From assembly GCA_965222075.1 (NCBI GenBank), contig OZ244937.1:64001-128000 (forward strand): a stretch of DNA of 64,000 nucleotides, written 5' to 3'. Below the pieces are notes generated by a model, which was given only the letters and a program-made list of their open reading frames with translations, had not been told where the DNA came from and searched no databases. The position numbers and the translations under genes are program-made. How positions within the stretch are numbered: position 1 is the stretch's first letter; every line of letters starts with the position of its first letter. The DNA comes from Candidatus Latescibacterota bacterium. Its GTDB lineage: Bacteria > Latescibacterota > UBA2968 > GCA-2709665. Shown here piece by piece: positions 8,226 through 29,447 of the stretch.

Positions 8226-9986
8226 ATGGCGGTGCAGCACACAGAGGCATACAGACGGATCCAGGCGCTGATTGTGGAAGATCGGTGCGTGATCTTAGAC
8301 GGAGGGGTGGCCACGGAGCTGGAGCGGGTTGGACTGAAGGACTACCGCATCAGCGATAAGGGGCTGTGGGGGACCTGGGCGCTGTACCACACCCCCCACG
8401 TGGTGCAGGAGGTCCACCACCGGTTTGTGCAGGCGGGGTGCGATCTGATATCGACGAATACGTGGGCGATTCTGAGTACCCCGGAGATGGAGACACGCAG
8501 TTTGATGGGGCACGCAGGGCCGGGGCACTGGATGGATGTGGCCAGGCTGGGGGTGAGGCTGGCGCGCCAGGCTGTTGATGAGGCCGGAAAGGGGGGCGAG
8601 TGTGCGGTGGGGTTCAGCCTCAACGGGGATATCGATACGCCCCAGGTGTTAGACAGGCTCCAGCTGCTGGCCCGGGTGTTCGAGGAAGAGCCCCCCGATC
8701 TGATCCTGATGGAGACGATGTCGTTGATCCGCGATGAGCGGACGTTTCCTGCGGTGGCGGCCATGCTCCGGACGGGTCTTCCGGTCTGGCTGAGTTTCCG
8801 GCGCTGCCGGCACGGGGTCTGCGGGGTGTTCGGGCAGCACTGGGGCGGGCCGGAGGGCGATCTGTTCGGGCGGACCGCCCGCGAATTTGAAAATATGGGG
8901 GTGGGCGCGTTGTTGATCAACTGTCTGCCGGCAGACCACGTGCCGGGGATGATCTCCTGGCTTCGGGACTTTACGGATCTACCCCTGGGCGCATATCCGA
9001 ACCTGGGACGCTATTTAGACCCGGGGTGGAAGTTTGACGATCAGGTGGGCCCCGAAGAGTACGCACAACTTACCAGGGGGTGGCGAGAGGAGGGGGCTCA
9101 GATTGTGGGGGGGTGCTGCGGGGTTACGCCGGAGCATCTTGTTGCCGTGCGGGAGGAGCTGGCAGAGACAAAGCCGGGCCGTCGGCGTGGAAGCGCGGTT
9201 CAACACCCGGTGCCGTCCGCGCCGGTTCGTGCGGTCCGTGCGCCCCAACCGTGGGTTGACGAGAAGCGGCGGAGCCTTTTCCCGCTTCCGTTTCCCGACA
9301 TTGTCTGTGATCCGGAGGTGTTCCGGCCTACGCAGGGTAGCTTCCTGCTGTGGAAATACCTGTTCCGGTCGGGGCTGGGGAAAGGGAAGCGGTGTCTGGA
9401 TGTGGGGTGCGGGACCGGGATTCTGACTGTGCAGCTCGCTTTGAACGGGGCCGAACACGTGCAGGCGATCGACATCCAGCGCGAAGCGGTGGGCAATACG
9501 CTTACGAACGCGTTTCGCAACGATGTTGCCGACCGGGTGAGCGGAGAGGTGGTTGACCTGTATACCTATCTGCCGGAAATGAAGTACGAGCTGATCGTTG
9601 CGAGCCTGTATCAGATGCCGGTGGATCCGATGGGGAATCCGATGGGGCACCGGCCAGCGGATTTCTGGGGCCGGAATCTGCTGGATCATCTGATTTCCCT
9701 GCTGCCGGAGCTTTTGGAGGAGGACGGGGTTGCCTACCTGATGCAGATTTCCGCGCTGGGCCAGCTTCGGACCGCAGAGCTTTTGGAGGAGGCCGGGTTT
9801 GACGCCAGGGTGGTGGATTACAGCTTTTTTCACTTCAGCTCGGCGTTTTATGAGAATATCGACCAAATCCACCGTGTGGAGGAGCTTTCAGACGCGTACC
9901 ATTTAACGTTTGGCGACGAGGACGTGATGGCGATGTATTTGCTGGAGATCACACGTCGGGCTGCGCAGGATGCTGCATCCGGATAG
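8226..9986 (+). CDS. Fusion: homocysteine S-methyltransferase domain plus class I (HemK-like) SAM methyltransferase domain
   Basis: ILDGGVATELE, LINC, GAYPN, IVGGCCG (Zn-binding cysteines); Pro/Arg-rich linker; then VFRP, LDVGCGTG, AIDI. Confidence 0.9.
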   Translation: MAVQHTEAYRRIQALIVEDRCVILDGGVATELERVGLKDYRISDKGLWGTWALYHTPHVVQEVHHRFVQAGCDLISTNTWAILSTPEMETRSLMGHAGPGHWMDVARLGVRLARQAVDEAGKGGECAVGFSLNGDIDTPQVLDRLQLLARVFEEEPPDLILMETMSLIRDERTFPAVAAMLRTGLPVWLSFRRCRHGVCGVFGQHWGGPEGDLFGRTAREFENMGVGALLINCLPADHVPGMISWLRDFTDLPLGAYPNLGRYLDPGWKFDDQVGPEEYAQLTRGWREEGAQIVGGCCGVTPEHLVAVREELAETKPGRRRGSAVQHPVPSAPVRAVRAPQPWVDEKRRSLFPLPFPDIVCDPEVFRPTQGSFLLWKYLFRSGLGKGKRCLDVGCGTGILTVQLALNGAEHVQAIDIQREAVGNTLTNAFRNDVADRVSGEVVDLYTYLPEMKYELIVASLYQMPVDPMGNPMGHRPADFWGRNLLDHLISLLPELLEEDGVAYLMQISALGQLRTAELLEEAGFDARVVDYSFFHFSSAFYENIDQIHRVEELSDAYHLTFGDEDVMAMYLLEITRRAAQDAASG

Positions 9987-10036
9987 AAGCCCTGGAAAGT
10001 TTGTGTAAACGCCAATAAGGCTTAAAGGGATGGCCG

Positions 10037-11785
10037 ATGGGATTCTCACCGCGTGCAATGGTGCAACGCCCCCGCCCCGAGAGCGAGGGGAACAGGGCCC
10101 TGCTGGTGCTGGTGGACAGTCGGGGCAGTTATACGGATACGAGCATCGTGGATCAAACCGTGCTGGTGGCTTTGCAGCACTTCGGGTTTCCGTTTCGCAT
10201 TCACGATTTGGCAGCCGGTCCGCTGACCCGCGACCTGCTGGAGAACTGCGCCGCCGTGGTTATCGCCCAGGCCCGCCTGGGGGATGTCCTCTCGTTAGAG
10301 GAGACAAAGCTGCTGGCCTCGGGGGTGGAAGAGGCCGGGCTGGGTCTGGTCAATTTCGATGGTGAGCTGCGGCTGTACAAACCGCCGCTGCTGCGCCTCC
10401 TGGGGCTGGAGGCGGACCGGATTCCGATGGCCTCGGACCTGCTGCGCATCGGGGGCAACGACCACTTTATTAACCGGACGCAGCAGGCGGGCAGTCTGGT
10501 CCGGTTGAAGCGACCGGTGACCACTGCTCAGATCAAGCGGGTGGGCCGACACGTTGTGGAGCTGGCGCAGGTTGCGATGGGCAAAGACCAGCTCATTTTC
10601 TCCCGCCACAACGTTCCGGGTACGGCCTACGAGCCGGACCAGTTTCCGGTTGTTCTGGCCGGGGTCTGCGGGAATGGCCGGGCCGTGCAGTTTGCCTGTT
10701 CTCCCCGGATCTGGCACCCGGAGTTTCTGGGCCATGCGATGGGGCTGGACGCCTTTTTCTGGCGCGCGATTGTCTGGGCGGCGCGCAAGCCGTTTGCCGC
10801 TCAGATGATGCCGCCCTATGTGACCATCCGGGTGGACGACGGCAGGGGGCGCCACGATTTCCGCTATACCGGGGTGATGAACCGGCACGGCTACCGTCCG
10901 ATGATCTCCTGTTTCCTGGATCTCGTCCCGGACGAGGTGGTGCCGTTTATGCGGGCCCAATACGAGGCCGGGCAGGTGGGCTGGGACGCGCATGCCTTCG
11001 ATTACTACACGCTGATTCCTTTCGATTTCGGCATTGGGGAGTACAGCGACGCGGAGCTGAAGGAGATCTTCGAGCGGGTGGACCGGTGGTACGACGAACG
11101 GGGATTGAGGCCGCCGCGCCGGGCGGTTTTTCACTGGGGCGAGGTGGGGGTGCGCGTCCTGCCTTATCTGAAGGCCCGGGGGCGGACTTTTATCTATTCG
11201 ACCTACCATCTGGGACAGGTGAAGTGGGAGCGGCTGTTTCCCAACTGGTGGCCCTACGGCCTCAACAGCCTGTTCTACGACTATGTGCCCGAAGATCCGG
11301 AGATGTACAACATCGGGGCTATGCTGCCCCGCCACCTTGTGGAGCCCGACGTGTTGACCGGCTGTACGACCTGGGCCGGCGACAATCCGACCAACGATAT
11401 GGTCAAGGCCGCAGACCGGGCGGGCGGCTCGGTCCGCCTGGCGCTGGACAGCGGGTTCTTTTCGGAGATCACCACCCACGAGCAGAAGTTCGGGGTGCTT
11501 ACCCTGGAGGAGATCGACCGATGGTTGTCGCTGCTGGGGCAGCAGACGGACCGTTACGACATCCGGGGGGTGAGCCACGATGAGGCCGCCGAGTATACCC
11601 GGGCCCGGGATGAGTCGTGGATTGCGGCTGCGTCCACGCCCGACGGCAGGGCGGTATGCCTCAGGCTGGGTGGAAAGGCGGGCGTGCCCCTGGAACTGGC
11701 CCTGTTCGAGAACGACGGGGACGGCGTGGCCCAGCGGTGGGAATCGGTCCCCGCCTTCGAGGAGGAGGTCCAGGTCAATCTCTGA
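10037..11785 (+). CDS. Hypothetical protein with polysaccharide-deacetylase-like C-terminal domain
   Basis: Long ORF with host-like codon use; IRVDD and downstream His motifs resemble a NodB-like barrel; start uncertain (10037 or 10058). Confidence 0.55.
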   Translation: MGFSPRAMVQRPRPESEGNRALLVLVDSRGSYTDTSIVDQTVLVALQHFGFPFRIHDLAAGPLTRDLLENCAAVVIAQARLGDVLSLEETKLLASGVEEAGLGLVNFDGELRLYKPPLLRLLGLEADRIPMASDLLRIGGNDHFINRTQQAGSLVRLKRPVTTAQIKRVGRHVVELAQVAMGKDQLIFSRHNVPGTAYEPDQFPVVLAGVCGNGRAVQFACSPRIWHPEFLGHAMGLDAFFWRAIVWAARKPFAAQMMPPYVTIRVDDGRGRHDFRYTGVMNRHGYRPMISCFLDLVPDEVVPFMRAQYEAGQVGWDAHAFDYYTLIPFDFGIGEYSDAELKEIFERVDRWYDERGLRPPRRAVFHWGEVGVRVLPYLKARGRTFIYSTYHLGQVKWERLFPNWWPYGLNSLFYDYVPEDPEMYNIGAMLPRHLVEPDVLTGCTTWAGDNPTNDMVKAADRAGGSVRLALDSGFFSEITTHEQKFGVLTLEEIDRWLSLLGQQTDRYDIRGVSHDEAAEYTRARDESWIAAASTPDGRAVCLRLGGKAGVPLELALFENDGDGVAQRWESVPAFEEEVQVNL

Positions 11786-11859: not shown

Positions 11860-13899
11860 ATGGCTGAAAGGCGGGAGATAGCGGTCGTAAGGCGAGCGGG
11901 TGTGGCGGAGGACCTCCGGGAGGTCGAGGGAGAGGTGGGGCAGGAGCGGGGGGTGACGCTCCGGGCGGTCGTCTTCGGAATTTGCGTGGCCGTAGGGGTG
12001 AGCCTGCTGGCCAATACGGTGGTCTATGTCCTTCACGGGTCGTATATGACCATCAGCATGATGCCGATGGTGAACCTCATGCTCTTCCTCCTGTCGGTCC
12101 TGGCCTGCGCTGCGCTGGCACGGCTGTTCGGGCGCCGGTTCGTCTTCTCTCAGGCAGAGTGGATCACGATTTTCTGCATGGGGTTCAGCAGCGCGATTTG
12201 CCCTACCTACAGGACCTCCGGCTACCTCCTCAGCATTCTGGCGTCCCCGTATTATTTCGCGACGCCGGAGAACCGGTGGGCGGAGTACATCCATCCCTAC
12301 CTGCCCGGGTGGTTGATTCCCTCAAACGAGAATGGGGCGATCACGCAGTTTTTCGAGGGGCTGCCAAAGGGGGCGTTGATCCCCTGGGAGGTCTGGGCGG
12401 TTCCGCTGTTGTGGAGTTTTCTCCTGGTTGCGGCGTTCGTTTTTGCCTGTTTCTGCGTGTCGGTGATCCTGCATCGGCAGTGGGCAGAGCACGAGAAGCT
12501 GGTGTACCCGGCGCTGACGCCGATTCTGGAGATGACGGCGCGGGCGGGTACAGGGCGGCGGGCGCTGCCGGAGTTTATGAAGGGGAAGGCGTTCTGGGCA
12601 GGATTGGCATTGACCTCATTTGTGTTCTGCTGGAACATGATCGGCTGGTTCTACCCTCATTTTCCGCAGTTTCCAACGGGAGGCGGGTGGAGCGGTTCCT
12701 TCCATTACCTCTTGCCGAGGAACTATCCTCCTTTTTTTATTTTTCCAAGCACGGTCGTGATCTGTTTTTCCTATTTCGCCAGCCTCGAGGTGTTGTTCAG
12801 TATCTGGTTTTTTGACCTTTTGTACGTGTTCGAAGCGGGTCTACTGAACCGGTTTGGGATCGTGGCCACGTCCAGTTCCTACGTTGGGGCCGGGCCCTAC
12901 GCGGTGACCAGCTATAAGTGGCAGACGGCCGGGGCCTTCATTGCGCTGGTGCTCTGGTGGCTCTGGATTTCCCGGGGGCACCTCCGCAACGTGCTGAATA
13001 AGGCGATTCGGCCGTCTGTGGATGACAGCCGGGAGATGCTTTCTTACCGGACGGCGGTGGTGGGTCTGATTGTCTGCAGCCTCTACATCGCGGCCTGGTT
13101 TGGGCAGGTGGGAATCGAGGCGAAGATGGTTGTGCTGCTGGTTCCCACCGCGTTTCTGGTGTTTGTGGGTCTGGCGAAGATGATGGCGGATTCGGGGCTG
13201 GTCTACCTGGAGGCCTCGGCGCTGTGCTGGGACTATTCCCTGTTTGCCTTAGGCGGCGCAAGCGAGATGAAGCCGTCCACGCACGCGGCCAGCGGCCTGC
13301 TGGCGTTTACGCTCAATCATCCCTGGAGTTCGGTGATGCCGATGATGTCCCACGCCTGTCGCCTGGGGGACTTTGTGTGGAAGGACAAGCGGAGGCTCTT
13401 CTGGAGCATCTGGTGGGCGTTCATCGTGGGGGTGACGGTGTCTACGGTGTTCATCATCTGGCTGGCCTACAGGGAGGGGGCCCACAGTTTTCAGAACTGG
13501 TCGATTCTGAGGGAAGGGGTATGGCAGTACGGGTTGTCCATCAATGCGATGAGCAATCCCCGGCCGATTTTGACGGTCGAGTACTGGCTTTTTCTGGGTG
13601 GGGTCGTGAGTATGCTTTTCCTGACTTTTATGCGTTACCGGTTCGCCTGGTGGCCGTTTCATCCGGTGGGGTTTGCCTTCTCGGGCACGATTTTTACACG
13701 GCTGGAGAGTTTCACAATTCTGATCGCATGGCTGCTCAAGTTTCTGATGCTCAAGATCGGCGGCGTGTCTTTTTACCGGCGGTCGAGGCCGTTTTTCGTC
13801 GGCATGCTGGTCGGTTACATCCTGGCTGTGGTCGCAGGGCTTGTGGTGGACGCGGTCTGGTTTCCGGGGCAGGGGCACAGGGTGCATCAGTGGTATTGA
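11860..13899 (+). CDS. Polytopic membrane protein, DUF6785/DUF6784 putative transporter family
   Basis: Many TM segments; motifs PYYFATPENRW, IPWEVWAVPL, QWAEHEKLVYP, RFAWWPFHPVGF, RPFFVGMLVG. Confidence 0.8.
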   Translation: MAERREIAVVRRAGVAEDLREVEGEVGQERGVTLRAVVFGICVAVGVSLLANTVVYVLHGSYMTISMMPMVNLMLFLLSVLACAALARLFGRRFVFSQAEWITIFCMGFSSAICPTYRTSGYLLSILASPYYFATPENRWAEYIHPYLPGWLIPSNENGAITQFFEGLPKGALIPWEVWAVPLLWSFLLVAAFVFACFCVSVILHRQWAEHEKLVYPALTPILEMTARAGTGRRALPEFMKGKAFWAGLALTSFVFCWNMIGWFYPHFPQFPTGGGWSGSFHYLLPRNYPPFFIFPSTVVICFSYFASLEVLFSIWFFDLLYVFEAGLLNRFGIVATSSSYVGAGPYAVTSYKWQTAGAFIALVLWWLWISRGHLRNVLNKAIRPSVDDSREMLSYRTAVVGLIVCSLYIAAWFGQVGIEAKMVVLLVPTAFLVFVGLAKMMADSGLVYLEASALCWDYSLFALGGASEMKPSTHAASGLLAFTLNHPWSSVMPMMSHACRLGDFVWKDKRRLFWSIWWAFIVGVTVSTVFIIWLAYREGAHSFQNWSILREGVWQYGLSINAMSNPRPILTVEYWLFLGGVVSMLFLTFMRYRFAWWPFHPVGFAFSGTIFTRLESFTILIAWLLKFLMLKIGGVSFYRRSRPFFVGMLVGYILAVVAGLVVDAVWFPGQGHRVHQWY

Positions 13900-14031: not shown

Positions 14032-15129
14032 TTGGAGGAGGATGAGATGAATCCCGGGTATTTTGAGGTCAAAGAGATCAAGGGAAGTCCCTTCGATATC
14101 GGCGTGAGGTATGGCGAATTCATAAAGCTCGAGTTCAGCCAGATTGTAGCGCAGTATGCCGAGAGCTATTTGAAGAAACACGATCCGGCGCGGGTTGAGG
14201 TCATCAAGGAGGGTATGGAGGGCTATCTGAGGGATCACGCCCCGACGCTGATCGAAGAGATGGCCGGAATCGCCGAGGGTTCCGGCGTTCCTTTTGACGA
14301 TGTGTTCAAGCACAATCTGTGCAGTTGTATCGGGACGACGCTTTCTGCGGAAGCGTCCGTGCGTGAAGCTGTGCACTGTACAAGCATTGGGTTTCCGAAC
14401 AGCGACCGGGGGCCTCTTTTGGGAAAGAATACGGATTGTGGGGACCCCGAGGAGTCTCTCATCCGGTTTGTGCCCATGCTCCTCTGGCGCCCTTCAAACG
14501 GGCTGGCTTCGATCGGGTCTACCCATATGGGGACGGTGTGGAGACACGTAGGGGTCAACGAGAAAGGGCTGGCCCTGGGCGGGTCTTCGGTAAGCGGCAG
14601 GGTCGCGGACTTTGAGCCGGGGCTGACGGATGGATTCCTGGGCAGGCTGTTTCTGGACCGGTGTGCGACCGTGGGGGAGGCCGTCAATCTTGTGGAGGCG
14701 CATCCCTTTGTAGGCGCGGGGGTGAATTTTATCGTGGTGGATGAAGCGGGGGACGCTGCGGTGTTCGAGTTGTCGGCAGAGGGAAAGGTGGTGGAGCGGC
14801 TGAACGGGCACAGCCATCTGTTTACGACGAATTTTTACGCTTCCGGGAAGCTGCGGCACGGGCCCGACAGCCAGGCGTGGGCGCTGGACAATTCGAGGGC
14901 ACGACACGCGTTGCTGACCCGGATCGAGCCGGATCGGGACGGCGGGTTCCGCTTTGGGCAGATGGAGGAGGTGCTCTGTCACCGGGCTGGAGAGGGGGCA
15001 ATCTGCCAGTACAAGGATGTCAACAGGATGAGTACGACGTTTTCAACGATCGCGGTTTGCAAAGAGCGTGCGCTGCTTACGGCTTGGGGTAAGCCGTGTG
15101 ATACGGCATACCAGGTGTATCGTGTGTGA
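14032..15129 (+). CDS. Peptidase C45 / acyl-CoA:6-APA acyltransferase-like Ntn hydrolase
   Basis: EEMAGIAEGSG, cleavage-site Cys in HCTSIG, LLGKNTD, GVNEKGL, TTNFY, NSRAR, WGKPC; start TTG 14032 or ATG 14047. Confidence 0.85.
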   Translation: MEEDEMNPGYFEVKEIKGSPFDIGVRYGEFIKLEFSQIVAQYAESYLKKHDPARVEVIKEGMEGYLRDHAPTLIEEMAGIAEGSGVPFDDVFKHNLCSCIGTTLSAEASVREAVHCTSIGFPNSDRGPLLGKNTDCGDPEESLIRFVPMLLWRPSNGLASIGSTHMGTVWRHVGVNEKGLALGGSSVSGRVADFEPGLTDGFLGRLFLDRCATVGEAVNLVEAHPFVGAGVNFIVVDEAGDAAVFELSAEGKVVERLNGHSHLFTTNFYASGKLRHGPDSQAWALDNSRARHALLTRIEPDRDGGFRFGQMEEVLCHRAGEGAICQYKDVNRMSTTFSTIAVCKERALLTAWGKPCDTAYQVYRV

Positions 15130-15178: not shown

Positions 15179-16081
15179 ATGGCGAAGCATCTTATGGATA
15201 TGTTGAAAGATGGCGTTGTACTGGGTGACGGTGGCATGTACCTGGAGGCAAACTGGCGGGGCTACGACGTGCCCGAAATCATCGGGTCGCACCCGGAGGC
15301 ATTGCGGCAGATCCACCAGGATTTTTACAATGCCGGTTCGCAGGTGCTTCAGGCGCTGACCTGGTTTACGTCGGGTGCGCAGCTGGAGGCGAAGTACGGC
15401 TGGGGCGACCGGGTGGAAGAGATCAATCGAACGGGGATTCAGGCGGCGAAGGAGGCATCGGACGGGGAGGCGCCGGTGGGGGGGTGTCTGGTGTCTACGA
15501 GGACGGGGTCGCGGCTGGGGGATCCGGTTTTCGATCCGGACGATCCGTCGTCGCACGCCCGGGCGCAGGCGGAGTGGGAGGAGCAGATTGCGATCCTGGT
15601 GGATGCGGGCGCGGATTTTCTGATTCCCGAGACCTTCAGTCGACTGGATGAGGTGCGGGTGTGTCTGGAGAGCTGCAAGAAGGCGGACGTTCCGACGATG
15701 GTGCTGATGGGGATCGGGAGTGAGAAGACGACACAGGATGGGGCGACTGCTGCAGAGTGTGCCCGGGTGCTGGTTGACGAGGGCGCGGATGTTGTGGGCA
15801 CGGTCTGCATCGGGGATGCCGAGCAGATGCTGCCGACCGCGCTGGAGATGCGGGAGGCGGTGGATGTGCCGGTCGCCTGCCAGCCGAAAGGGTTCAGGCA
15901 GAGAGTGGATACCGAAGGGGTTGACTACGCCGTGTCGCGCTTTTCGGAGGGCGTCAGTGCGGAGGAGATGGCGGAGTTTGCGGTGAAGGCGAAGGCGGAA
16001 GGGATTAACTTCATCGGGTGCTGCTGCGGCACGGGTCCTTCGCACATCCGGGCGATGGCGGAGGCGCTGGGGCTCAAGTAG
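15179..16081 (+). CDS. Homocysteine S-methyltransferase family protein (paralogue 2)
   Basis: VVLGDGGM, HPEALRQIHQDF, ETF, GTVC, IGCCCGTGPSHIRAMAEAL. Confidence 0.9.
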   Translation: MAKHLMDMLKDGVVLGDGGMYLEANWRGYDVPEIIGSHPEALRQIHQDFYNAGSQVLQALTWFTSGAQLEAKYGWGDRVEEINRTGIQAAKEASDGEAPVGGCLVSTRTGSRLGDPVFDPDDPSSHARAQAEWEEQIAILVDAGADFLIPETFSRLDEVRVCLESCKKADVPTMVLMGIGSEKTTQDGATAAECARVLVDEGADVVGTVCIGDAEQMLPTALEMREAVDVPVACQPKGFRQRVDTEGVDYAVSRFSEGVSAEEMAEFAVKAKAEGINFIGCCCGTGPSHIRAMAEALGLK

Positions 16082-22411: not shown

Positions 22412-22463
22412 TACTGCAGAAGGGGCCGCCGCAGTGCCAAGAACCGGCACGACGTGGCCTGGT

Positions 22464-22769: not shown

Positions 22770-23975
22770 ATGGCCACACCAGGGCAGGTGCGGATCGGTA
22801 TTGTGGGGTTGGGACCGCGCGGCAGGCGGGCGTGGATGAAAAATCTGCTGCGAATCAAGACGTGCAGGGTGACGGCCCTCTGTGATAAGGTCGAGGCCCT
22901 TGTGCAGCAGGCTTATGAGGAGGCGGGAGATCCGGATATTACGTGCTATACCGATTATGAGAAGATGCTGAAGGAGGCGAAGATCGACGCGGTGGCGATT
23001 GTGGCAGCGCCGCACGATCAGCCGGATCTGATCTGCCGGGCGATGGAGACGGGCAAGCATGCGGCCTGCGAGGTGTCGCTGACGTACGATATGGACGATT
23101 TGTGGCGGGTGGTGGTTGCGGTGGAGCGGAGCGGGCTGAAGTTTCAGATGGCGGAACAGGTGATGTACCATGCGTTTGTGAATGCATGGCGGAAGATGGT
23201 TCTGGAGGGGAAACTCGGTCATATCATTTTTGCCGAGGGGCAGTATCTTCACGGGATGACGTCGGACCGCTTCTGGGTGGATTCCGAGACCGGGGAGCGG
23301 ATCACTCTGGAGGAAGCTAAGGGTCATCCGAGGGCGGTAAAGAGCAGGATGTGGAACTGGTATCCACATCCGATCCTTTATATGGCCACCGATCTGGGGC
23401 CGATTTTGACGGTTCTGGAGGACCGGGTGGAGCGGGTGACATGCATGGCCACGCGTCCGGAAAGTTACTATTATGAGGGGATTCCGGCGTCCGATATCGA
23501 GGTGGCGTTGATGCACACGGAGAAGGATACGATTATCCGGATGGCAAGCGGGTTTACGTATGCGACCACCCCCCGTAACCACCACTGGTGGCACCTGGAG
23601 GGGACGAAGGGGAAGGTGGAGACCGCTCGTTCCGCGGAGATCTACGGTGGGGCTTCGGGGGTGGACACTCCGAAGATGTGGCTGGAGAGTTCCGGAAAGG
23701 AAGGCATGCAGTCGGTGGAGTGGCAGTATTCGCTCGATGAGCTTCCGGCGGCGGCGGTGGGGAGCGGGCATGGGAATATGGACTATTTTGCGCTGTCTTC
23801 TTTTTTGGATGCGATTCTGAACGATTCGGAGCCGCCGCTGGACGTGTACAAGTCTGCGGACTTGACGGCCCCGGCGATTGTGGCCGTGCAGTCGGTGGAG
23901 CAGGGGAGCGCGTGCCTGGAGGTGCCGGATTTCAGGCCTTCTGAGAAGCGGAGGGCGGGGGAGCTTCCGGAATAA
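22770..23975 (+). CDS. Gfo/Idh/MocA family NAD(P)-dependent oxidoreductase (GH109-like subgroup)
   Basis: IGIVGLGPRG, GKHAACEV, AEGQYLH, GSGHGNMDY, EVPDFR; RBS AGGAGG. Confidence 0.9.
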   Translation: MATPGQVRIGIVGLGPRGRRAWMKNLLRIKTCRVTALCDKVEALVQQAYEEAGDPDITCYTDYEKMLKEAKIDAVAIVAAPHDQPDLICRAMETGKHAACEVSLTYDMDDLWRVVVAVERSGLKFQMAEQVMYHAFVNAWRKMVLEGKLGHIIFAEGQYLHGMTSDRFWVDSETGERITLEEAKGHPRAVKSRMWNWYPHPILYMATDLGPILTVLEDRVERVTCMATRPESYYYEGIPASDIEVALMHTEKDTIIRMASGFTYATTPRNHHWWHLEGTKGKVETARSAEIYGGASGVDTPKMWLESSGKEGMQSVEWQYSLDELPAAAVGSGHGNMDYFALSSFLDAILNDSEPPLDVYKSADLTAPAIVAVQSVEQGSACLEVPDFRPSEKRRAGELPE

Positions 23976-24006
23976 AGGGCTGTTCCGACAAATGGGAGGT
24001 GACACG

Positions 24007-24942
24007 ATGGCATCTGGATTTCTGGAACGTCTGAACGAGGGGCCGCTGCTCGGCGACGGGGGTTACTACCTGGAGCTGGAGCGGCGGTGTCTGGGGAGTT
24101 TCGACAAGGGCGTGCCCTGGGCTGTGCTGGATCATCCGGAGGGTGTGCTGGAGCTGCACAGAGAGTTCGCGCGGGCAGGCGCAGAGGTGCTGCAGGCAAT
24201 GGCGTGGGGCGTGGGGAAGCTGGACCGGGACGAGGAGCTGCACCGCACGGCGGTTGAGCTTGCCCGGGAGGCGGCCGGGCCGAACCGGTTCGTGGCGGGC
24301 ACCCTCAGCCCGGCGGGGATCGGGCAGTACCAAAGGCGGTCGCCCATTACCGAAAAGGAGAGGCGCGAGGCGCAGGCGTTTTTCGAGCGACGGGTGGGAC
24401 AGCAGGTTGCCGCCGGGGTGGACCTGTTTATCGTGGAGACGTTTTACTCTGTAGAGGAAGCATCGCTGGGGTTGCCGTATATCAAAGATGCCGGCTTACC
24501 TGCTGTGGTGACACTGGAGTACAAGTCGGGAGAATATACGTCCGACCGGTACCTGCCGGATGAGGCTGCAAAGCGGCTGGTGGATTTTGGGGCCGATGTG
24601 GTAGGGATAAACTGCGGCCGGCCCTGGTACATGTACCGCGATATTATACACAAGATGATGGCGGCGGTGTCGGCGCCGATCTGCGCCCAGCCCTTGGCTT
24701 ATGTCCTGGAGAATGGGGCGGAGTATACACGGGAAATCGCCTCAGGCTCAAGCGTGCATTTCGAACTCCGGCACCAGCCCCGGCGAGAGATGGCCGATTA
24801 TGCGAGGGACGCGTGGGATATGGGGGTCAAGTTCATCGGGGCCTGCTGCGGAGCGTTGCCCTACCACATCCGGGCGATGGCCGAGGCGATCGGGAAGCCG
24901 ACGGAGATCCCGGACCGGGCCGGGCCTTATCAGCTTCAGTGA
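24007..24942 (+). CDS. Homocysteine S-methyltransferase family protein, BHMT-like (paralogue 3)
   Basis: ATG 24007 after GGAGGT; FLERLNEGPLLGDGG, LHREFARAG, GINC, IGACCG.LPYHIRAMAE. Confidence 0.9.
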   Translation: MASGFLERLNEGPLLGDGGYYLELERRCLGSFDKGVPWAVLDHPEGVLELHREFARAGAEVLQAMAWGVGKLDRDEELHRTAVELAREAAGPNRFVAGTLSPAGIGQYQRRSPITEKERREAQAFFERRVGQQVAAGVDLFIVETFYSVEEASLGLPYIKDAGLPAVVTLEYKSGEYTSDRYLPDEAAKRLVDFGADVVGINCGRPWYMYRDIIHKMMAAVSAPICAQPLAYVLENGAEYTREIASGSSVHFELRHQPRREMADYARDAWDMGVKFIGACCGALPYHIRAMAEAIGKPTEIPDRAGPYQLQ

Positions 24943-24990: not shown

Positions 24991-24996
24991 TGCTGT

Positions 24997-25413: not shown

Positions 25414-25436
25414 TAAGTTAAAAGGAGGATCGAAAG

Positions 25437-26306
25437 ATGGCGAAGGATTTGATGGAGATGCTGGGGGAGGGCATTGTGCTGGGGGACGGCGGAATGTACC
25501 TGGAGGCACTCTGGCGCGGGTACGGCGTGCCCGAGATCATCGGGTCGCACCCGGAGGCATTGCGGCAGATCCACCAGGACTTTTACAATGCCGGTTCGCA
25601 GGTGCTTCAGGCGCTGACCTGGTTTACGTCGGGTGCGCAGCTGGAGGCGAAGTACGGCTGGGGCGATCGGGTGGAAGAGATCAATCGAACGGGGATTCGG
25701 GCGGCGAAGGAGGCGTCCAACGGGGAGGCGCCGGTGGGGGGGTGTCTGGTGTCTACGAGGACGGGGTCGCGGCTGGGGGATCCGGTTTTCGATCCGGACG
25801 ATCCGTCGTCGCACGCCCGGGCGCAGGCAGAGTGGGAGGATCAGATTGCGATCCTGGTGGATGCGGGCGCGGATTTTCTGATTCCCGAGACGTTTGCCCG
25901 GTTGGACGAGGTGCGGTTGTGTCTGGAGAGCTGTAAGAAGACCGACGTGCCGACGATGGTGCTGCTGGGAATGGGGAGCCGGAACGAGACTCAGGACGGA
26001 GTTAAGGCAGCGGAGTGCGCACGGATCCTGGCCGGAGACGGGGCGGATATCGTGGGCACGGTCTGCATCGGGGGTCCCGAGCAGATGCTGCCGACCGCGC
26101 TGGAGATGCGGGAGGCGGTGGATGTGCCGATCGCCTGCCAGCCGAAGGGGTTCAAGCAGAATCAGAAATACAATGTCGTTCCGCCGGAAGAGATGGGGGA
26201 GTTTGCGGTGAAGGCGAAGGCGGAAGGGATTAATTACATCGGCTGCTGCTGCGGCACGGGTCCTTTGCACATTCGGGCGATGGCGGAGGCGCTGGGGCTC
26301 AAGTAG
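25437..26306 (+). CDS. Homocysteine S-methyltransferase family protein (paralogue 4)
   Basis: Near-duplicate of 15179-16081 including RBS and 3' flank; GTVC, IGCCCG. Confidence 0.9.
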   Translation: MAKDLMEMLGEGIVLGDGGMYLEALWRGYGVPEIIGSHPEALRQIHQDFYNAGSQVLQALTWFTSGAQLEAKYGWGDRVEEINRTGIRAAKEASNGEAPVGGCLVSTRTGSRLGDPVFDPDDPSSHARAQAEWEDQIAILVDAGADFLIPETFARLDEVRLCLESCKKTDVPTMVLLGMGSRNETQDGVKAAECARILAGDGADIVGTVCIGGPEQMLPTALEMREAVDVPIACQPKGFKQNQKYNVVPPEEMGEFAVKAKAEGINYIGCCCGTGPLHIRAMAEALGLK

Positions 26307-26324
26307 GGACCAGCCAGGCAAAGA

Positions 26325-26396
26325 CCTGTCTGCCTGCTTGCCTGTCTGCCTTCGGCACAGGCAGGCGCGCTGCGCGCAGGCAGGCGCACAGGCAGG
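26325..26396. repeat. Nested CCTGTCTGCC/CAGGCAGG REP-like cluster
   Basis: Two left arms, TTC loop, three CAGGCAGG right arms. Confidence 0.7.
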
Positions 26397-26411
26397 CGCG
26401 GAGGATATTCG

Positions 26412-27596
26412 GTGGAGGAGATACGGATTGGCATCGCGGGGCTTGGTGGCCGCGCCCTGGCCTGGATCCGGCTGCTGCAAAGGATCCCTGGCTACCGCAT
26501 CACGGCGATCTGCGACTGGATCGAGCCGCTGTATGAGCGGGCGCTGGCGGAGATCGACTATCGCGACGACGTGAAGGTGTTCAGGGATTACGAGGATTTC
26601 CTCGGTTACGACGGGATCGATGCAGTCGGCCTGGTGGTACGGCAGAAAGAGGTGGGGGCGATGGCGACGCAGGCCCTGGAGGCGGGAAAACACGTGAACA
26701 GCGAGGTTCCGGCGGCCTACACCCTGGAGGATTGCTGGCGGATCGTGACGGCGGTGGAACGGACAGGACTGGTGTACAGTTTGGCAGAGCAGACGCGGTA
26801 CTGGGGGTTGGCGGAGGGGTGGCGGAAGCTGGTCTCAGAGGGACGACTGGGGAAGATCACCTACGCCGAGGGACAGTATATCCATTACATTGGCACTGGG
26901 CGGTGGTTTAGGGATTACAGGACGGGGAGGTTCTGTTCGATCGAGGAGCGGACAGATCACCCGGAAGCGGAGCCGGTCGAACACAGGCCGCCGATCATTG
27001 CCGCCTCCTATGACCTGAGTATCCTTTTGAAGGTCCTGGACGACCGTGTGGTGGAGGTGACTGCGATGGGTACGAAGTCACCCAGCTATGCGCATCCGGA
27101 GATAAGACGACCCGATTTTCAAGTTGCCTTGATGAAGACGGAAAAGGATACGCTGATCCGTATGCTGGACGGCCACACCCAACCGCGTCCACACGGCGAT
27201 TATCACTGGTGGCAGTTGATCGGGACGAAGGGCAGCGCCGAGTGGCGGCGGTCGCTTGGAGACAAGCCGAAGGTGTGGTTTGCCGACACCCAGATGAATG
27301 ACTGGGCAGAGGTGGACTGGCGGTACGAGCGCACGGATGCGCTCCCTGAGGCGCGGGGCAGCGGCCACAGCGATGCGGATTATTATGTGCACGCGAATTT
27401 TCGAGATGCGGTGCTGGCGGGTAAGCCGCTGGATTTTGACGTATACAGGGTGATGGACACGATGGCGCCGGCTGTTCTGGCGGTCGATTCGATCGAGGTG
27501 GGGAGCAGGCTGATGCGCGTGCCGGATTTTCGTCCAGGCGCAGACCGAACTGCGGGGGAGATGCCCGAGGATCTGGGAGGAATTGGGGTAAGGTAA
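26412..27596 (+). CDS. Gfo/Idh/MocA family oxidoreductase
   Basis: GTG after GGAGG; IGIAGLGGR, GKHVNSEVP, AEGQYIH, GSGHSDADY, RVPDFRP; paralogue of 22770-23975. Confidence 0.9.
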   Translation: MEEIRIGIAGLGGRALAWIRLLQRIPGYRITAICDWIEPLYERALAEIDYRDDVKVFRDYEDFLGYDGIDAVGLVVRQKEVGAMATQALEAGKHVNSEVPAAYTLEDCWRIVTAVERTGLVYSLAEQTRYWGLAEGWRKLVSEGRLGKITYAEGQYIHYIGTGRWFRDYRTGRFCSIEERTDHPEAEPVEHRPPIIAASYDLSILLKVLDDRVVEVTAMGTKSPSYAHPEIRRPDFQVALMKTEKDTLIRMLDGHTQPRPHGDYHWWQLIGTKGSAEWRRSLGDKPKVWFADTQMNDWAEVDWRYERTDALPEARGSGHSDADYYVHANFRDAVLAGKPLDFDVYRVMDTMAPAVLAVDSIEVGSRLMRVPDFRPGADRTAGEMPEDLGGIGVR

Positions 27597-27614
27597 TTAG
27601 AGATCAGGAGGGTC

Positions 27615-28511
27615 ATGAGGATGAAACCCATGGATTTGGGCGAGGCAGTCGATAGAATACACGAGAAAATCTCACCCTGGTTTGAGGGGAACGAAGCGTT
27701 AGAACGAGCCTGGAAACTCCTGGTGGCGAGTTTTCCGCGCCGCTCTGAAAGTCCTGGGAAGGGAAGAATGGAGGGGATGAGCATAGATGATCGCTGGTTG
27801 CCTCCATCGCCACACAAAGAGAAGGTGTTGAGGGTCATCCGTGAAGGACTGGGCCACATCGTGGTACGCGGGAACAATGTCTCCCCTCTGTTCGTGTCCA
27901 AATGGGGCGGGGTTATGGAACTTTCCAGCGTGCGATGGGACGGGAAAGGACTTGCAGCCTTTTGTGATTCTTCGACAGCCGGTCAGACCAGGCATCCGGA
28001 CCCCTGCGCTGCGCTGGATGAGCTAAAAGGGCTTCTCAAGGATGAGCCTGAATCGGTCAAGACGGACAAAGACCGTCTAAATCAACTCATAGACGACCTG
28101 GATCTGATGTACTCCAATATGCAAAGGCGTTGCGAGGAATACGAAAGGTTTTCAGCCGACATCGTTCATCTACACCAACAGATGGAGAAAGTGAGCAGGC
28201 CCGATACAGTGCAGGCCCGTCGGAAGTTGAGCGAAATCCGTACTGCGCTGCAAGCGTCTAAACCGGAACAGGTGCACAAACTTGCTGAGGTCGTACGGCG
28301 CATAGGGGGGGATTTGGAAAGATGCCTCTCAAAGCATAAAGACCTGGCAGTTAAAGTCGGCAGATTATATGAGAATATCAAGGGTGGCAGAGAATGGAGA
28401 GAAGGGCAGGCCCTGTACCTGGACGGCTGGATGAGGTTCACGGACGGACGGTATGAAAAATCAGCGAATCCATTGAGTGTCGAGACAACCGTAAACGGGG
28501 AGGAAACGTAG
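27615..28511 (+). CDS. Hypothetical protein with coiled-coil-like C-terminal half
   Basis: 298-aa ORF after AGGAGG; lower GC than flanks; no recognised motif. Confidence 0.65.
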   Translation: MRMKPMDLGEAVDRIHEKISPWFEGNEALERAWKLLVASFPRRSESPGKGRMEGMSIDDRWLPPSPHKEKVLRVIREGLGHIVVRGNNVSPLFVSKWGGVMELSSVRWDGKGLAAFCDSSTAGQTRHPDPCAALDELKGLLKDEPESVKTDKDRLNQLIDDLDLMYSNMQRRCEEYERFSADIVHLHQQMEKVSRPDTVQARRKLSEIRTALQASKPEQVHKLAEVVRRIGGDLERCLSKHKDLAVKVGRLYENIKGGREWREGQALYLDGWMRFTDGRYEKSANPLSVETTVNGEET

Positions 28512-28586
28512 GGGAATGGGGGTCTGTATGGAGGCGGAGTACAATTGCGACTACCGGCGGGAAGGGATTGAAAGGAGGACTTGAGG

Positions 28587-29447
28587 ATGGCGAAGAATCT
28601 TCTGGAGATGCTGAAAGAGGACGTGGTTTTGAGTGACGGGGGGATGATCCTGGAGGCGAGGTGGCGCGGGTATGATACGCCCAGGGCGATTGTGGAACAT
28701 CCGGACGCGATCCGGCAGATTCACAGAGATTTCTACAATGCAGGCTCTCAGGTGCTTGAGGCGGTGACGTGGTTTTGCTCCAGGTCTCAGCTGGAGCGGA
28801 ATTTCGGGTGGGGAGACCGGCTGGACGAGGTGAACCGGATGGGTGTGCAATTGGCGGTGGAAGCGTCGGACGGGGAGGCGCCGGTGGGCGGGTGCCTGGT
28901 GTCGACCAGGACCGGGTCGTGGGAGGGCGATCCGATTTTCGATCCGGACGATGCGTCGTCGCACGCCCGGGCGCAGGCGGAGTGGGAGGAGCAGATTGCG
29001 ATCCTGGTGGATGCGGGCGCGGATTTTCTGATTCCCGAGACCTTCAGTCGACTGGATGAGGTGCGGGTGTGTCTGGAGAGTTGCAAGAAGGCGGACATTC
29101 CGACAATGGTGTTGATGGGCCTTGGGAACAGGACGCCGGACGGCGCATCTCCGGCGGAGTGCGCTCGCATTCTGGTTGACGAGGGCGCGGATGTTGTGGG
29201 CACGGTTTGCAGCGGCCGCCCAAGCAGCATGTGGCCTGTGGTACTGGAGATGCGGGAGGCGGTGGATGTGCCGATCGGCTATCAGCCGAGCGGTTACGCC
29301 GGCCCCAACGCGATGGTTCCCGTGGAGGAGATGGCCGAGTATGCCCTGAAGGCGAAGGCGGAGGGTATCAACTTCGTCGGCGCTTGCTGCTATGCCGGTC
29401 CCAAGCACATTCGGGCCATGGCCAAGGCTCTGGGCCGCAAGGGGTGA
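28587..29447 (+). CDS. Homocysteine S-methyltransferase family protein (paralogue 5)
   Basis: ATG 28587 after AAGGAGG; VVLSDGGM, GTVC, VGACCYAGPKHIRAMAKAL. Confidence 0.9.
   Translation: MAKNLLEMLKEDVVLSDGGMILEARWRGYDTPRAIVEHPDAIRQIHRDFYNAGSQVLEAVTWFCSRSQLERNFGWGDRLDEVNRMGVQLAVEASDGEAPVGGCLVSTRTGSWEGDPIFDPDDASSHARAQAEWEEQIAILVDAGADFLIPETFSRLDEVRVCLESCKKADIPTMVLMGLGNRTPDGASPAECARILVDEGADVVGTVCSGRPSSMWPVVLEMREAVDVPIGYQPSGYAGPNAMVPVEEMAEYALKAKAEGINFVGACCYAGPKHIRAMAKALGRKG

Follow-up and report, generated by a model that had tools for sequence, protein, structure and literature searches.

Why should a bacterium keep five homocysteine S-methyltransferase (HMT) genes within about 21 kb, interspersed with genes for oxidoreductases and transporters? 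The question is raised by the window analyzed here, a stretch of 64,000 nucleotides from the 5.36 Mb genome of a sponge-associated Candidatus Latescibacterota. An earlier note had read it as part of a catabolic system in which diversified zinc methyltransferases demethylate onium compounds, coupled to NAD-dependent oxidation. The features of the window are collected in Table 1.

Table 1 Features of the window, with the evidence for their assignment.
Feature	Position	Strand	Evidence and remarks
TonB-dependent receptor, 3' part	1..1833	+	CarboxypepD_reg + Plug (Pfam on whole gene L006:6105-9149); this part alone without Pfam match
OM800, ~780-aa secreted receptor partner	1892..4228	+	N-terminal hydrophobic segment; no Pfam match
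PorV/PorQ-family outer-membrane barrel	4259..5209	+	NCBIfam NF033709, 161 bits (cut-off 90); weak Pfam PorV/UPF0164
PhyH-family Fe/2-oxoglutarate dioxygenase	5264..6295	+	Pfam 1.7e-10
Putative cyclase/formamidase-like protein	6324..7022	+	PF04199, 2.9e-21
Kelch-like beta-propeller protein	7044..8174	+	Weak Kelch_6; directly upstream of fusion HMT
HMT + SAM-methyltransferase fusion	8226..9986	+	PF02574 E 5.4e-41, residues 22-311; class I SAM-methyltransferase ~370-508
U582	10037..11785	+	Distant U600-family member (17% identity); family carbohydrate de-N-acetylase-like
DUF6785+DUF6784 putative inner-membrane permease	11860..13899	+	Pfam; ~13 hydrophobic segments
C45-family autoproteolytic Ntn acyltransferase/hydrolase	14032..15129	+	NCBIfam, 158.5 bits (cut-off 85)
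HMT clade A	15179..16081	+	PF02574 E 2.6e-43; BHMT-like, Cys triad, DGG, Glu
DEAD + UvrD helicase fusion, 1525 aa	16467..21044	+	In probable insertion; outside system
Gfo400, GH109-like NAD-binding protein, Gfo/Idh/MocA superfamily	22770..23975	+	PF01408 5e-12; PDB comparison
HMT clade B (HMT-B)	24007..24942	+	PF02574 E 2.1e-37; frame open from 23878, conserved Met at 24007
HMT clade A	25437..26306	+	PF02574 E 8.4e-41; 86% identical to 15179 copy
Second Gfo400	26412..27596	+	PF01408 1e-11; 43% identical to 22770
U298, helical protein, no assigned family	27615..28511	+	Orthologue in G004 at 91%
HMT clade A	28587..29447	+	PF02574 E 9e-41; frame 28581; 74-75% identical to 15179 copy
Polysaccharide-synthesis cluster	29815..50266	+	TPR, Wzy x2, GT4 x5, DegT, formyltransferase, PIG-L, Bac_transf, epimerases
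M14 zinc carboxypeptidase	51613..52743	+	Directly after HMT block in genus g2
Gfo/Idh/MocA oxidoreductase, 422 aa	52791..54059	+	Pfam; upstream of HMT remnant
Clade-B HMT remnant, internally deleted	54095..54217	+	HMM match E 6e-07
U600-family de-N-acetylase-like paralogue	61919..63625	+	24% identical to modelled U600

An expanded family of BHMT-like enzymes

A Pfam scan of 45 open reading frames recovered the five intact PF02574 genes and one deletion remnant that the earlier note had reported. All five genes score 130-149 bits against a gathering cut-off of 22, and all five retain the three zinc cysteines claimed for them. Across the genome there are 26 matches, i.e., 22 full-length genes, one split gene that is counted twice and two fragments, which makes the expansion about four times larger than first seen. 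Fifteen of these matches lie within ~253 kb (4.7% of the genome), a region that wraps the start of the record. Most genomes of the same family carry 6-32 matches, and the HMT block of the window is syntenic in other genera. The remnant also proved real: its 41-codon frame fuses the first 12 HMT residues to the last ~29, and in the same position, behind the orthologue of the Gfo gene at 52791, the sister genome G001 has a full-length HMT (L093) and G004 an HMT interrupted by a single TAA (L096). The segment from 16.1 to 22.7 kb, which is missing between the orthologous flanks in L017, is probably an insertion that splits the ancestral block; the polysaccharide-synthesis cluster is probably another insertion and lies outside the HMT system.

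A profile of the 22 paralogues matched BHMT1 best (1umy, 3e-76, 259 bits), followed by the homocysteine domain of Thermotoga maritima MetH (182 bits) and MmuM (122 bits). To judge from sequence, the 22 copies form an expansion specific to this lineage and made up of stand-alone homocysteine S-methyltransferases that are BHMT-like and zinc-dependent. They share the (beta/alpha)8 PF02574 domain with BHMT and BHMT2 (EC 2.1.1.5 / 2.1.1.10; 1umy, 1lt7/1lt8, 4m3p), and Pfam family and zinc chemistry also with MmuM/YagD (5dml) and the MetH homocysteine domain (1q7m). All paralogues stay below every NCBIfam equivalog cut-off. On the BHMT model NF005718 (cut-off 338 bits) the five window copies score 54.7-95.7 bits, the highest value being that of the 15179 copy, whose best NCBIfam model yields 150 of the 453 bits required. 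On the MmuM model NF007020 (cut-off 215 bits) the fusion gene scores 107.9 and the other window copies 58-68 bits. The stand-alone HMTs of the window comprise 286-316 residues, while BHMT chains have 406-407, and alignments to the latter stop at residue 340-342; since the proteins end near BHMT residue 300-340, they lack the C-terminal part of BHMT. None of the HMTs has an N-terminal hydrophobic segment, which indicates a cytoplasmic location.

The Cys217/Cys299/Cys300 zinc triad of BHMT aligns with cysteines in 20 of the 22 copies, one following the beta-strand in the motif NC and two in GCCG (C210, C282 and C283 in the 15179 protein). Two tandem copies outside the window lack all three. With BHMT residue numbers counted from the alignment of the 22-paralogue profile, the glutamate corresponding to E159 is present in 21 and the DGG motif in 19 of the 22 copies, in each case including all five of the window; we take these to be the residues that bind the amino-acid end of homocysteine. 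The picture differs for W44, Y77 and Y160, which are presumably the betaine-pocket residues of BHMT. Ten different residues occupy the W44 position, Y160 is replaced by Thr (13), Ala (6) or Ser (2) and kept as Tyr once, and a deletion removes 10 residues of clade A at the W44 loop. In the window, the W44 position is taken by D, G or W, the Y77 position by F, G or A, and the Y160 position by T. As read from this alignment, the paralogues agree on the thiol side and vary on the donor side, in line with the diversified zinc methyltransferases envisaged earlier.

Methionine synthesis is an unlikely explanation for the copies

Pterin-binding, B12-binding, MetE and MetF families gave no match in the 45 scanned reading frames of the window, in agreement with the earlier statement that met and folate genes are absent, and pterin- and B12-binding families gave none among 177 genes around the HMT copies outside it. 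Pterin_bind matches occur in the genome only at 2008541 and 4075857. A full-length MetH (~1220 aa) is absent, the best PF02574 match of the genome giving an E value of 1e-45 versus 1e-96 in MetH-bearing relatives. The genome encodes three MetE-like proteins and a single pair of MetK and S-adenosylhomocysteine (SAH) hydrolase, the genes of which are adjacent.

In principle, the paralogues could be the homocysteine-side modules of a split, corrinoid-dependent network whose methyl-corrinoid proteins are loaded elsewhere. PF02574 proteins act in this way in split MetH systems, an excerpt of PMC9324843 describes a cluster of genes for an MttB homologue, an HMT, a corrinoid protein and an activation protein, and an MttB gene resides ~6 kb from a broken HMT in one Chloroflexia locus. 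The missing MetH and the pterin-binding match at 4075857 would also fit. However, genes for corrinoid proteins, MttB, MtaA or activase were found in none of the 11 HMT loci among the genes scanned, so that the HMTs, unlike MetH, split MetH and MttB-corrinoid clusters, have no pterin, B12 or activation modules nearby, and ~0.6 Mb separate the region at ~4.08 Mb from the nearest HMT. The profile, moreover, is nearer to corrinoid-independent BHMT than to MetH. In split networks it is the donor-side enzymes that diversify, not the homocysteine side, and 22 acceptor modules would therefore be odd. Because the HMTs do not adjoin pterin or corrinoid modules, a split cobalamin methionine synthase, the alternative named in the earlier note, does not agree with the gene context, and we consider it very unlikely.

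Ordinary methionine salvage, by redundant HMTs dependent on S-methylmethionine (SMM) or S-adenosylmethionine or by plain glycine-betaine BHMTs whose position in an island merely reflects duplication history, is quite improbable. The copies would supply methionine in a genome lacking the ~1220-aa MetH, source annotations name relatives 'betaine-homocysteine S-methyltransferase', and recent tandem duplicates exist (86% identity in one case, 92-95% in others). On the other hand, three MetE-like genes are available, donor-side positions vary by clade, and sister families manage with 1-3 copies in similar settings. Orthologous HMTs are kept 1:1 between genera at synonymous saturation, each with conserved neighbors of its own. 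Their dN/dS ratios of 0.05-0.19 (0.05 for HMT-B versus genus g2, against which dS is ~1) indicate that the HMT subfamilies are under purifying selection. Contigs matching HMT-B by at least 99% over positions 24344-24944 are present in two sponge metatranscriptome libraries of one study and hint at expression in the sponge, although such RNA-library contigs may hold DNA.

HMT genes reside in uptake and degradation loci

The neighbors listed earlier, i.e., a TonB receptor, a PhyH oxygenase, an Ntn hydrolase (family C45) and a transporter (the DUF6785 membrane protein), were all recovered, and the catabolic setting extends well beyond the window. Sixteen of the 22 HMT copies lie within six genes of a DUF6785 or receptor gene, as compared with 15% of all genes (binomial 2e-9); at the level of loci, this applies to 8 of 11 (3e-5). 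The genome contains 47 copies of DUF6785 and, by label transfer, 21 trios of receptor, OM800 and PorV-like protein. These loci resemble the SusC/SusD polysaccharide utilization loci (PULs) of Bacteroidota in that TonB receptor, surface protein and degradative enzymes are co-localized, some 21 times over. They differ in that SusD is absent and a PorV-like barrel and the ~800-aa partner are found instead, with the 13-helix DUF6785 protein, a putative permease, as the inner-membrane step. No PUL that includes a homocysteine methyltransferase is known to us, and a full-text literature search for this pairing returned no paper.

Loci of clades A and B contain genes for heparinase II/III-like, PcRGLX/GH127-like and Agd3/PelA/NDST-like de-N-acetylase proteins, sulfatase, CBM9 and polysaccharide deacetylase, and peptidase-type genes (GGT, C45, S15, M14) recur. 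Gene order is strongly conserved: Gfo400 is followed by HMT-B, and HMT-B by HMT-A, in 16 of 17 loci each; a heparinase-like gene precedes the HMT in 11 of 11 loci, with U574 downstream in seven; and Gfo400, DUF6785, a Cys-less HMT and an HMT follow one another in 18 loci, though these counts are not independent because the relatives compared are kin. These neighbor sets recur in family f4.

Homologues also occur in other phyla. Of 17 Chloroflexota loci, 12 have a DAO-type flavoprotein flanking the HMT homologue, as in betaine catabolism (in one case with FAO_M), and six have a flanking DegT. On a Thermoplasmata contig a flavin amine oxidase gene follows directly. In Thermobaculum, the homologue is located between Gfo and GH4 genes, with genes for NagB, a BadF-type kinase, ROK and a sugar-binding protein nearby. 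Amine oxidases also lie within three genes of 4 of the 23 HMT matches in G000 (p 2e-4 to 1.4e-3).

GH109-like and de-N-acetylase-like partners

The three Gfo-HMT pairs described earlier (Gfo genes at 22770, 26412 and 52791) are present, and the linkage is retained across four genera of the family and in a second family, and more loosely in Chloroflexota. The proposed coupling to NAD-dependent oxidation did not hold in its general form. The Gfo family has 93 Pfam matches in the genome and, taken as a whole, is not enriched beside HMTs (2 observed versus 0.5-0.9 expected, p 0.10-0.24). The only enriched group is a subfamily of ~400 residues, here termed Gfo400, whose best PDB matches are the GH109 alpha-N-acetylgalactosaminidases NagA (2ixa) and AmGH109A (6t2b) with 95.8 and 76.6 bits, followed by DgpA (74 bits) and inositol dehydrogenases (69 bits). 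The match to GH109 spans two stretches, the Rossmann domain and a C-terminal segment with the motif G-x-G-H-G-x-x-D-Y-F, in which the invariant S-G-H of Gfo400 (G-S-G-H-G-N) aligns with G-A-G-H-G-G of NagA. The segment aligns with the GGHGG loop of GH109, which contains the catalytic His; the loop is named in the title of a reference given in PMC10755693. Gfo400 differs from GH109 in its low identity, the sequence of its loop and the absence of a signal peptide; its structure model (pLDDT 48) was too poor for comparison. Gfo400 looks like a GH109-like NAD-dependent glycosidase rather than a plain dehydrogenase. Since only this subfamily is enriched, the coupling is better read as one to a redox-type glycosidase.

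U600 and U582 gave no Pfam, NCBIfam or PDB match in sequence searches. The model of U600 (pLDDT 88, pTM 0.91) retrieved Agd3 (6nwz), PelA (9cgy), NDST1 (9f6z, 8cd0) and CE4 enzymes as top Foldseek matches (E 4.6e-13 to 1e-08), with whole-chain TM-scores of only 0.25-0.41. The U600 alignment contains a conserved GDSDG motif and invariant or near-invariant His residues, candidates for the metal-binding Asp/His set of such enzymes. U600 differs from Agd3, PelA and NDST1 in being cytoplasmic and in lacking any sequence-level match. U600 and, through A3, U582 are regarded as putative Agd3/PelA/NDST-like carbohydrate de-N-acetylases. Together with the heparinase-like and DegT partners, they are no less suggestive of amino-sugar or glycan-derived substrates than of free osmolytes.

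A glycosidase partner also brings another acceptor into view, namely a thiol or selenol freed within the locus, e.g., by cleavage of a thioglycoside or cysteinyl conjugate by the redox-type glycosidase, and then S-methylated. Thioglycosides are cleaved by GH4- and GH109-type mechanisms, selenocysteine methyltransferases belong to the HMT family, and the recurrent GGT, C45, S15 and M14 peptidases would suit such a conjugate. Yet the motifs that align with the presumed homocysteine-binding residues of BHMT are kept, and a methyl donor would still be required and is not encoded nearby. We find this hardly probable at all.

Proposed function

We tentatively propose, doubting it slightly more than we believe it, that the HMT paralogues are not methionine synthases but catabolic demethylases that need neither cobalamin nor oxygen and whose donors have diversified. 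The paralogue-specific loci suggest an undescribed way to strip methyl groups from host-derived food, with each paralogue assigned to one substrate-specific locus. The TonB receptor trio would import a host-derived compound across the outer membrane and the DUF6785 permease would carry it into the cytoplasm. There, homocysteine would be held on the Cys3-Zn site of the HMT and its thiolate would take over one methyl group, yielding methionine. The donor would most likely be a quaternary ammonium or sulfonium center, as in BHMT, BHMT2 and MmuM, with BHMT serving as the working model for corrinoid-independent methyl transfer. The demethylated product would pass to other cytoplasmic enzymes of the locus: flavin amine oxidases and PhyH dioxygenases for further N-demethylation or hydroxylation, DegT aminotransferases, GH109-like glycosidases or Gfo oxidoreductases, Agd3/NDST-like de-N-acetylases and peptidases. 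The single MetK and SAH hydrolase pair would regenerate homocysteine. That homocysteine is the methyl acceptor in vivo, that the role is catabolic, that the donors are onium compounds and that each paralogue has one donor are inferences.

A quaternary nitrogen is out of reach for flavin amine oxidases, and a prior transfer of a methyl group to a thiol would therefore be chemically complementary. The onium donors of the earlier note fit the flavin N-demethylase-type oxidases that flank Chloroflexota and Thermoplasmata homologues. Several observations run counter to the proposal. The paralogues miss the NCBIfam equivalog cut-offs and are without the C-terminal part of BHMT, and the window copies do not retain its betaine-pocket positions. 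Stoichiometric use of homocysteine would be costly for bulk catabolism, and clades A and B have their strongest partners among enzymes of glycan type (GH109-like, de-N-acetylase-like, heparinase II/III-like, sulfatase). To our knowledge, quaternary ammonium and sulfonium groups seldom occur in natural glycans.

The donors might instead be O-methyl ethers or methyl esters of uronic acids on glycan-derived sugars, which we regard as unlikely. In that case, the HMT would demethylate sugars without cobalamin or oxygen and conserve the methyl group as methionine, and the group may leave better after NAD-dependent oxidation by the adjacent GH109-like/Gfo enzyme. The PUL-like loci of clades A and B with their glycan-type enzymes, the tight linkage of Gfo400 to HMT-B, the Thermobaculum homologue amid sugar genes and the absence in clade A of the loop that closes the small betaine pocket of BHMT all speak for this. 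Nevertheless, we know of no family member with an ether or ester donor, all characterized donors known to us being onium compounds, methylcobalamin or methyl-tetrahydrofolate. Alkoxides leave poorly, methoxy beside a ketone would be eliminated as methanol without the help of an HMT, and the flavin oxidase neighbors in other phyla suit N-methyl chemistry better. A bolder reading, which we also regard as unlikely, would make the Latescibacterota-specific clades A and B a new HMT class of cytoplasmic B12-, O2- and folate-free demethylases. These would remove methyl decorations from host-derived amino-sugar or glycan fragments in concert with GH109-like NAD-dependent glycosidases and Agd3/NDST-like de-N-acetylases and capture the methyl group as methionine, with the Cys-less paralogues acting as regulatory or scaffolding partners of the active ones.

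The fusion gene

The fusion gene at 8226 stands apart from the other window copies. Its HMT domain is MmuM-like, with MmuM as the nearest model despite the missed cut-off, and has an intact Cys triad, but unlike MmuM the protein carries an additional SAM-methyltransferase domain, nearest to N6AMT1/HemK2 (30 bits). Its best 120 relatives are all fusions of ~560-620 aa with 65-100% identity and bear several phylum names. Paralogues of the Kelch-like protein encoded next to it adjoin HMTs in L016, G318 and G321.

HMT genes in the window and in the genome

The window lies in a 5.36-Mb single-contig genome (G000). Its genes were surveyed with a six-frame ORF list and Pfam scans of 45 ORFs, among which five encode a homocysteine S-methyltransferase-type (HMT, PF02574) domain with E values of 2e-37 to 3e-43, the number counted in the earlier note. 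An alignment of all copies in the genome bears out that these five keep all three zinc cysteines; the DGG motif and the glutamate aligned with E159 of betaine-homocysteine S-methyltransferase (BHMT) are also present in each. The sixth, degenerate copy that had been suspected at 54095 is genuine. It is a 41-codon frame that runs from the initial 12 residues of an HMT directly into its last ~29, and it lies 35 bases past a Gfo/Idh/MocA (Gfo, PF01408) gene at 52791-54059. A full-length HMT gene comes after the orthologue of this Gfo gene in the sister genome G001, and one with a single TAA in the related genome G004. The three Gfo-HMT adjacencies are as described earlier, and so are the named neighbours, i.e., the end of a TonB receptor, PhyH, a C45 Ntn hydrolase and a DUF6785 membrane protein. 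Likewise, none of the met or folate gene families was found among the 45 ORFs.

HMT genes of the window and their domains
Feature	Position	Family
HMT fused to a class I SAM-methyltransferase domain	8226-9986	PF02574
HMT	15179-16081	PF02574
HMT	24007-24942, frame open from 23878	PF02574
HMT	25437-26306	PF02574
HMT	28587-29447	PF02574

Genome-wide, 26 PF02574 matches correspond to 22 complete genes, two fragments and a frameshifted gene that accounts for two matches, and 15 of the 26 fall into ~253 kb around the start of the record. An HMT read in two overlapping frames at 5070234-5071113 (L016:8690-9569), adjoined by a Kelch and two DUF6785 genes, was probably split by a frameshift. Copy number was also compared among relatives: in a set of 41 genomes, members of the same family (f1) carry 6-32 PF02574 matches each, except for genus g3 with 1 and 3, and the sister family f2 mostly has 2-3. 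Across 151 genomes sampled from the phylum, with up to 15 matches scored per genome, counts of ten or more were confined to the f1 genera g1 and g2 and a single genome of family f4, for which the family profile yields 18 matches. The closest public loci, retrieved with a 10-row subfamily alignment that biases the scan to the large clade A described below, are labelled Candidatus Latescibacterota and in a few cases Gemmatimonadota; several stem from sponge or coral MAG sets.

A MetH of ~1220 aa was not found in G000 (best PF02574 E value 1e-45 vs 1e-96 where MetH is present), and full-length MetH occurs in some relatives of its own family. The genome also has three short MetE-like frames (at 888437, 4231692 and 4248638), Pterin_bind matches only at 2.01 and 4.08 Mb, and one adjacent pair of MetK and SAH-hydrolase genes.

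Conserved thiol site, variable donor side and phylogeny

The thiol site of the HMTs is intact and their donor side is varied. A profile of the 22 G000 proteins matched mammalian BHMT1 best (1umy, 3e-76, 259 bits), followed by the homocysteine domain of T. maritima MetH (182 bits) and E. coli-type MmuM (122 bits), and none of the copies reached an NCBIfam equivalog cut-off. With residue numbers counted from the printed alignment, the conserved columns align with BHMT D26-G27-G28, E159, C217, C299 and C300. Variable positions align with W44, Y77 and Y160, which we take to be the betaine pocket: ten different residues occur at the first of these among the copies, and the last is occupied by Thr (13), Ala (6), Ser (2) or Tyr (1). 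The W44 loop is shortened by ten residues in clade A.

A tree of 82 domains (FastTree, midpoint root) places the fusion protein with Chloroflexota counterparts in an MmuM-like clade and two further G000 copies, at 2107627 and 1207953, in a BHMT-proper clade that mixes Chloroflexota, Thermoplasmata and Acidobacteria. Clade B comprises window gene 24007 and three others. The large clade A is exclusive to Latescibacterota; besides window genes 15179, 25437 and 28587 it includes eight intact copies from elsewhere in G000 and two that lack the zinc cysteines. Copies of G000 and G004 mostly form one-to-one pairs, and dN/dS between orthologues is 0.05-0.19, with dS ~1 against genus g2. The expansion of these BHMT-like zinc methyltransferases is lineage-specific and selected.

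The two copies devoid of all three zinc cysteines are located at 151002-151937 (L008:4072-5007) and 3085609-3086529 (L014:7548-8468). Both are conserved across genera, and each has an intact copy as its tandem neighbour, at 151984 in the first case. The set of Gfo400 (a ~400-aa Gfo subfamily), DUF6785, Cys-less HMT and HMT recurs in 18 loci. As their dN/dS is 0.18-0.19 at a dS of 0.8-0.9, they are maintained, probably as pseudoenzymes and perhaps as partners of the active copy.

Genomic context of the HMT genes

Sixteen regions around all HMT copies, with 177 called genes, were scanned against Pfam. Each paralogue is tied to its own set of cytoplasmic enzymes behind a receptor and a permease. 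One recurring element is a trio of a CarboxypepD_reg/Plug TonB receptor, a ~800-aa secreted protein and a PorV-like barrel, of which G000 has 21 as judged by label transfer. Another is a DUF6785+DUF6784 protein with ~13 hydrophobic segments, which is present in 47 copies (one at 11860-13899 in the window), is absent from 14 control genomes and probably serves the receptor loci as their inner-membrane permease. For 16 of the 22 HMT genes a DUF6785 or receptor gene is no more than six genes away, which holds for 15% of all genes (2e-9); counted per locus, the figure is 8 of 11 (3e-5). The cytoplasmic partners include Gfo proteins, DegT pairs, PhyH, flavin amine oxidases, amidohydrolases, polysaccharide deacetylases and sulfatases, together with heparinase II/III-like, PcRGLX/GH127-like and ceramidase-like proteins and S15, M14, C45 and GGT peptidases. 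The HMT, Gfo400, C45, Kelch and PhyH proteins and U582, the product of the gene at 10037, lack an N-terminal hydrophobic segment. No pterin, B12, MttB or MtaA domain was present among the 177 genes, and the HMTs are without a link to corrinoid or folate modules. The HMT block of the window closes with a second route of uptake, an ABC importer of the Opp/Dpp type (SBP_bac_5, two permeases, two ATPases) encoded at 55371-61864 after an FG-GAP/ASPIC gene.

The link to Gfo proteins

The coupling of Gfo and HMT genes proposed in the earlier note stood for one subfamily and not for the Gfo class in general. G000 has 93 PF01408 matches, and permutations with family labels transferred by BLAST from ~176 hand-labelled genes, rather than taken from full Pfam annotation, gave no excess of the whole family next to HMT genes (2 observed vs 0.5-0.9 expected, p 0.10-0.24). 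Gfo400, a weakly scoring subfamily with 11 members by label transfer, including window genes 22770 and 26412, has a member no more than three genes away from 7 of 23 HMT matches, although these represent only three independent loci; 0.4-0.9 were expected, and none of 5000 permutations reached seven. Synteny is the stronger evidence for the link. The order Gfo400, clade B HMT (HMT-B), clade A HMT is kept in 16 of 17 loci with an orthologue of 24007 (genera g1, g2 and g4), the sole miss on each side of HMT-B being a contig end. HMT partner sets of f1 reappear in family f4.

In genus g2 the HMT block continues straight into M14, Gfo and FG-GAP genes. Two stretches of the window, 16082-22769 and 29815-50266, have a GC skew near 0 vs 0.2-0.28 around them and are missing between orthologous flanks in relatives. 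Probably, then, both were inserted into a single HMT super-locus that was contiguous in the ancestor. The former contains a 1525-aa DEAD+UvrD helicase fusion, and the latter is a 20-kb polysaccharide-synthesis cluster.

By sequence, Gfo400 appears GH109-like. Its closest relatives are alpha-N-acetylgalactosaminidases of this family (2ixa, 95.8 bits by profile; 6t2b, 76.6 bits), the match takes in the C-terminal G-x-G-H-G loop, and DgpA (74 bits) and inositol dehydrogenases (69 bits) come next. The label is one of sequence similarity; the AlphaFold model, built from a 10-row alignment, is too poor for comparison (mean pLDDT 48.2).

Further partners

U600, a family of ~600 aa lacking a Pfam assignment, has 11 paralogues in G000, one of them in the window at 61919. 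Its structure model, a confident one (pLDDT 88.3), matches Agd3, PelA, NDST1 and CE4 deacetylases. U582, encoded directly after the fusion gene, is a distant relative, and protein-atlas leads agree with the deacetylase matches. Neither these two nor U298 (27615) gave a useful PDB sequence match. At 38585-46944 (L005:1037-9396) three HMT + U600 pairs form a tandem array with U600 directly after HMT; the U600 copies are 92-95% identical and thus point to recent amplification. U574 and U423, encoded beside two HMT genes, were considered as further U600 relatives and rejected (hhalign probability 1.2% and 0.1%). One HMT orthologue has a heparinase-like gene ahead of it in 11 of 11 loci and U574 behind it in seven.

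Relatives of the fusion protein are numerous (2641 matches at E <= 1e-10), and the best 120 of the 2641 are all fusions with 65-100% identity; their source names range over Poribacteria, Acidobacteria, Tectomicrobia, Planctomycetes, Gemmatimonadota and Anaerolineae. Proteins with 65-76% identity are named under six or more phyla, and many come from lineages of sponge symbionts. The methyltransferase half is nearest to N6AMT1/HemK2.

Possible methyl donors

We infer that the HMTs demethylate imported compounds with homocysteine as acceptor, and donors would vary from paralogue to paralogue. The most economical assumption is that the donors are onium compounds because, to our knowledge, the family has no characterised direct donor of any other kind; the neighbouring flavin oxidases fit as well, being compatible with a path from quaternary via tertiary to primary amines. 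Given the glycan-type partners of clades A and B, a bolder and less likely reading would have methyl groups on sugar-derived substrates as donors.

In known routes, nutrients are demethylated by oxygenases (P450, Rieske and 2-oxoglutarate enzymes), flavin oxidases and corrinoid methyltransferase systems. We know of direct BHMT-type transfer to homocysteine only for a few small onium donors, usually with one or two genes per genome. Full-text searches returned no account of HMT genes multiplied in this way or placed in PUL-like loci, none of DUF6785, no text pairing 'homocysteine S-methyltransferase' with 'polysaccharide utilization', and none on Latescibacter, sponge and homocysteine. Titles or abstracts of work on betaine with sponges and Latescibacter, sponge-symbiont homocysteine methyltransferase and PF02574 mention no such expansion; passages of PMC12879404 and PMC9324843 deal with ordinary BHMT and a corrinoid cluster.

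A symbiont lineage with ~10-30 HMT copies, each in its own uptake and degradation locus, suggests a donor range much wider than known, and a route by which sponge and coral symbionts may draw on compounds of their host for methyl groups and methionine, with no need for B12 or oxygen. DUF6785, U600 and the HMT-methyltransferase fusion, three large families without function, receive a first context, and concrete enzyme sets become open to testing. Automatic labels such as 'BHMT' or 'methionine synthase I' mask this diversity.

Weak evidence for expression comes from two sponge RNA libraries of a single study, whose contigs match HMT-B at 99% or more. Most of 22700-29500 is without cover in the two metatranscriptome runs, which is not a sign of silence.

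HMT genes in other phyla

Homologues at E <= 1e-50 occur in 18 of 201 sampled Chloroflexota genomes. In 17 other loci from this phylum, for which 51 of 65 flanking frames were scanned and short frames dropped, DAO-type flavoproteins were found in 12 loci, DegT in 6, Fe-ADH in 3 and SBP_bac_5 in 2. One Chloroflexota locus has an HMT-methyltransferase fusion beside a BHMT-like HMT. Three further contexts were covered by scanning 33 proteins. In Thermobaculum the order is Gfo, ROK, Gfo, sugar-binding protein, Gfo, HMT, GH4, NagB and BadF-type kinase; a Chloroflexia locus has Gfo, ROK, a broken HMT, two Gfo and ABC transporter parts, with an MttB gene ~6 kb on; and on a Thermoplasmata contig a flavin amine oxidase gene directly follows that for the HMT.
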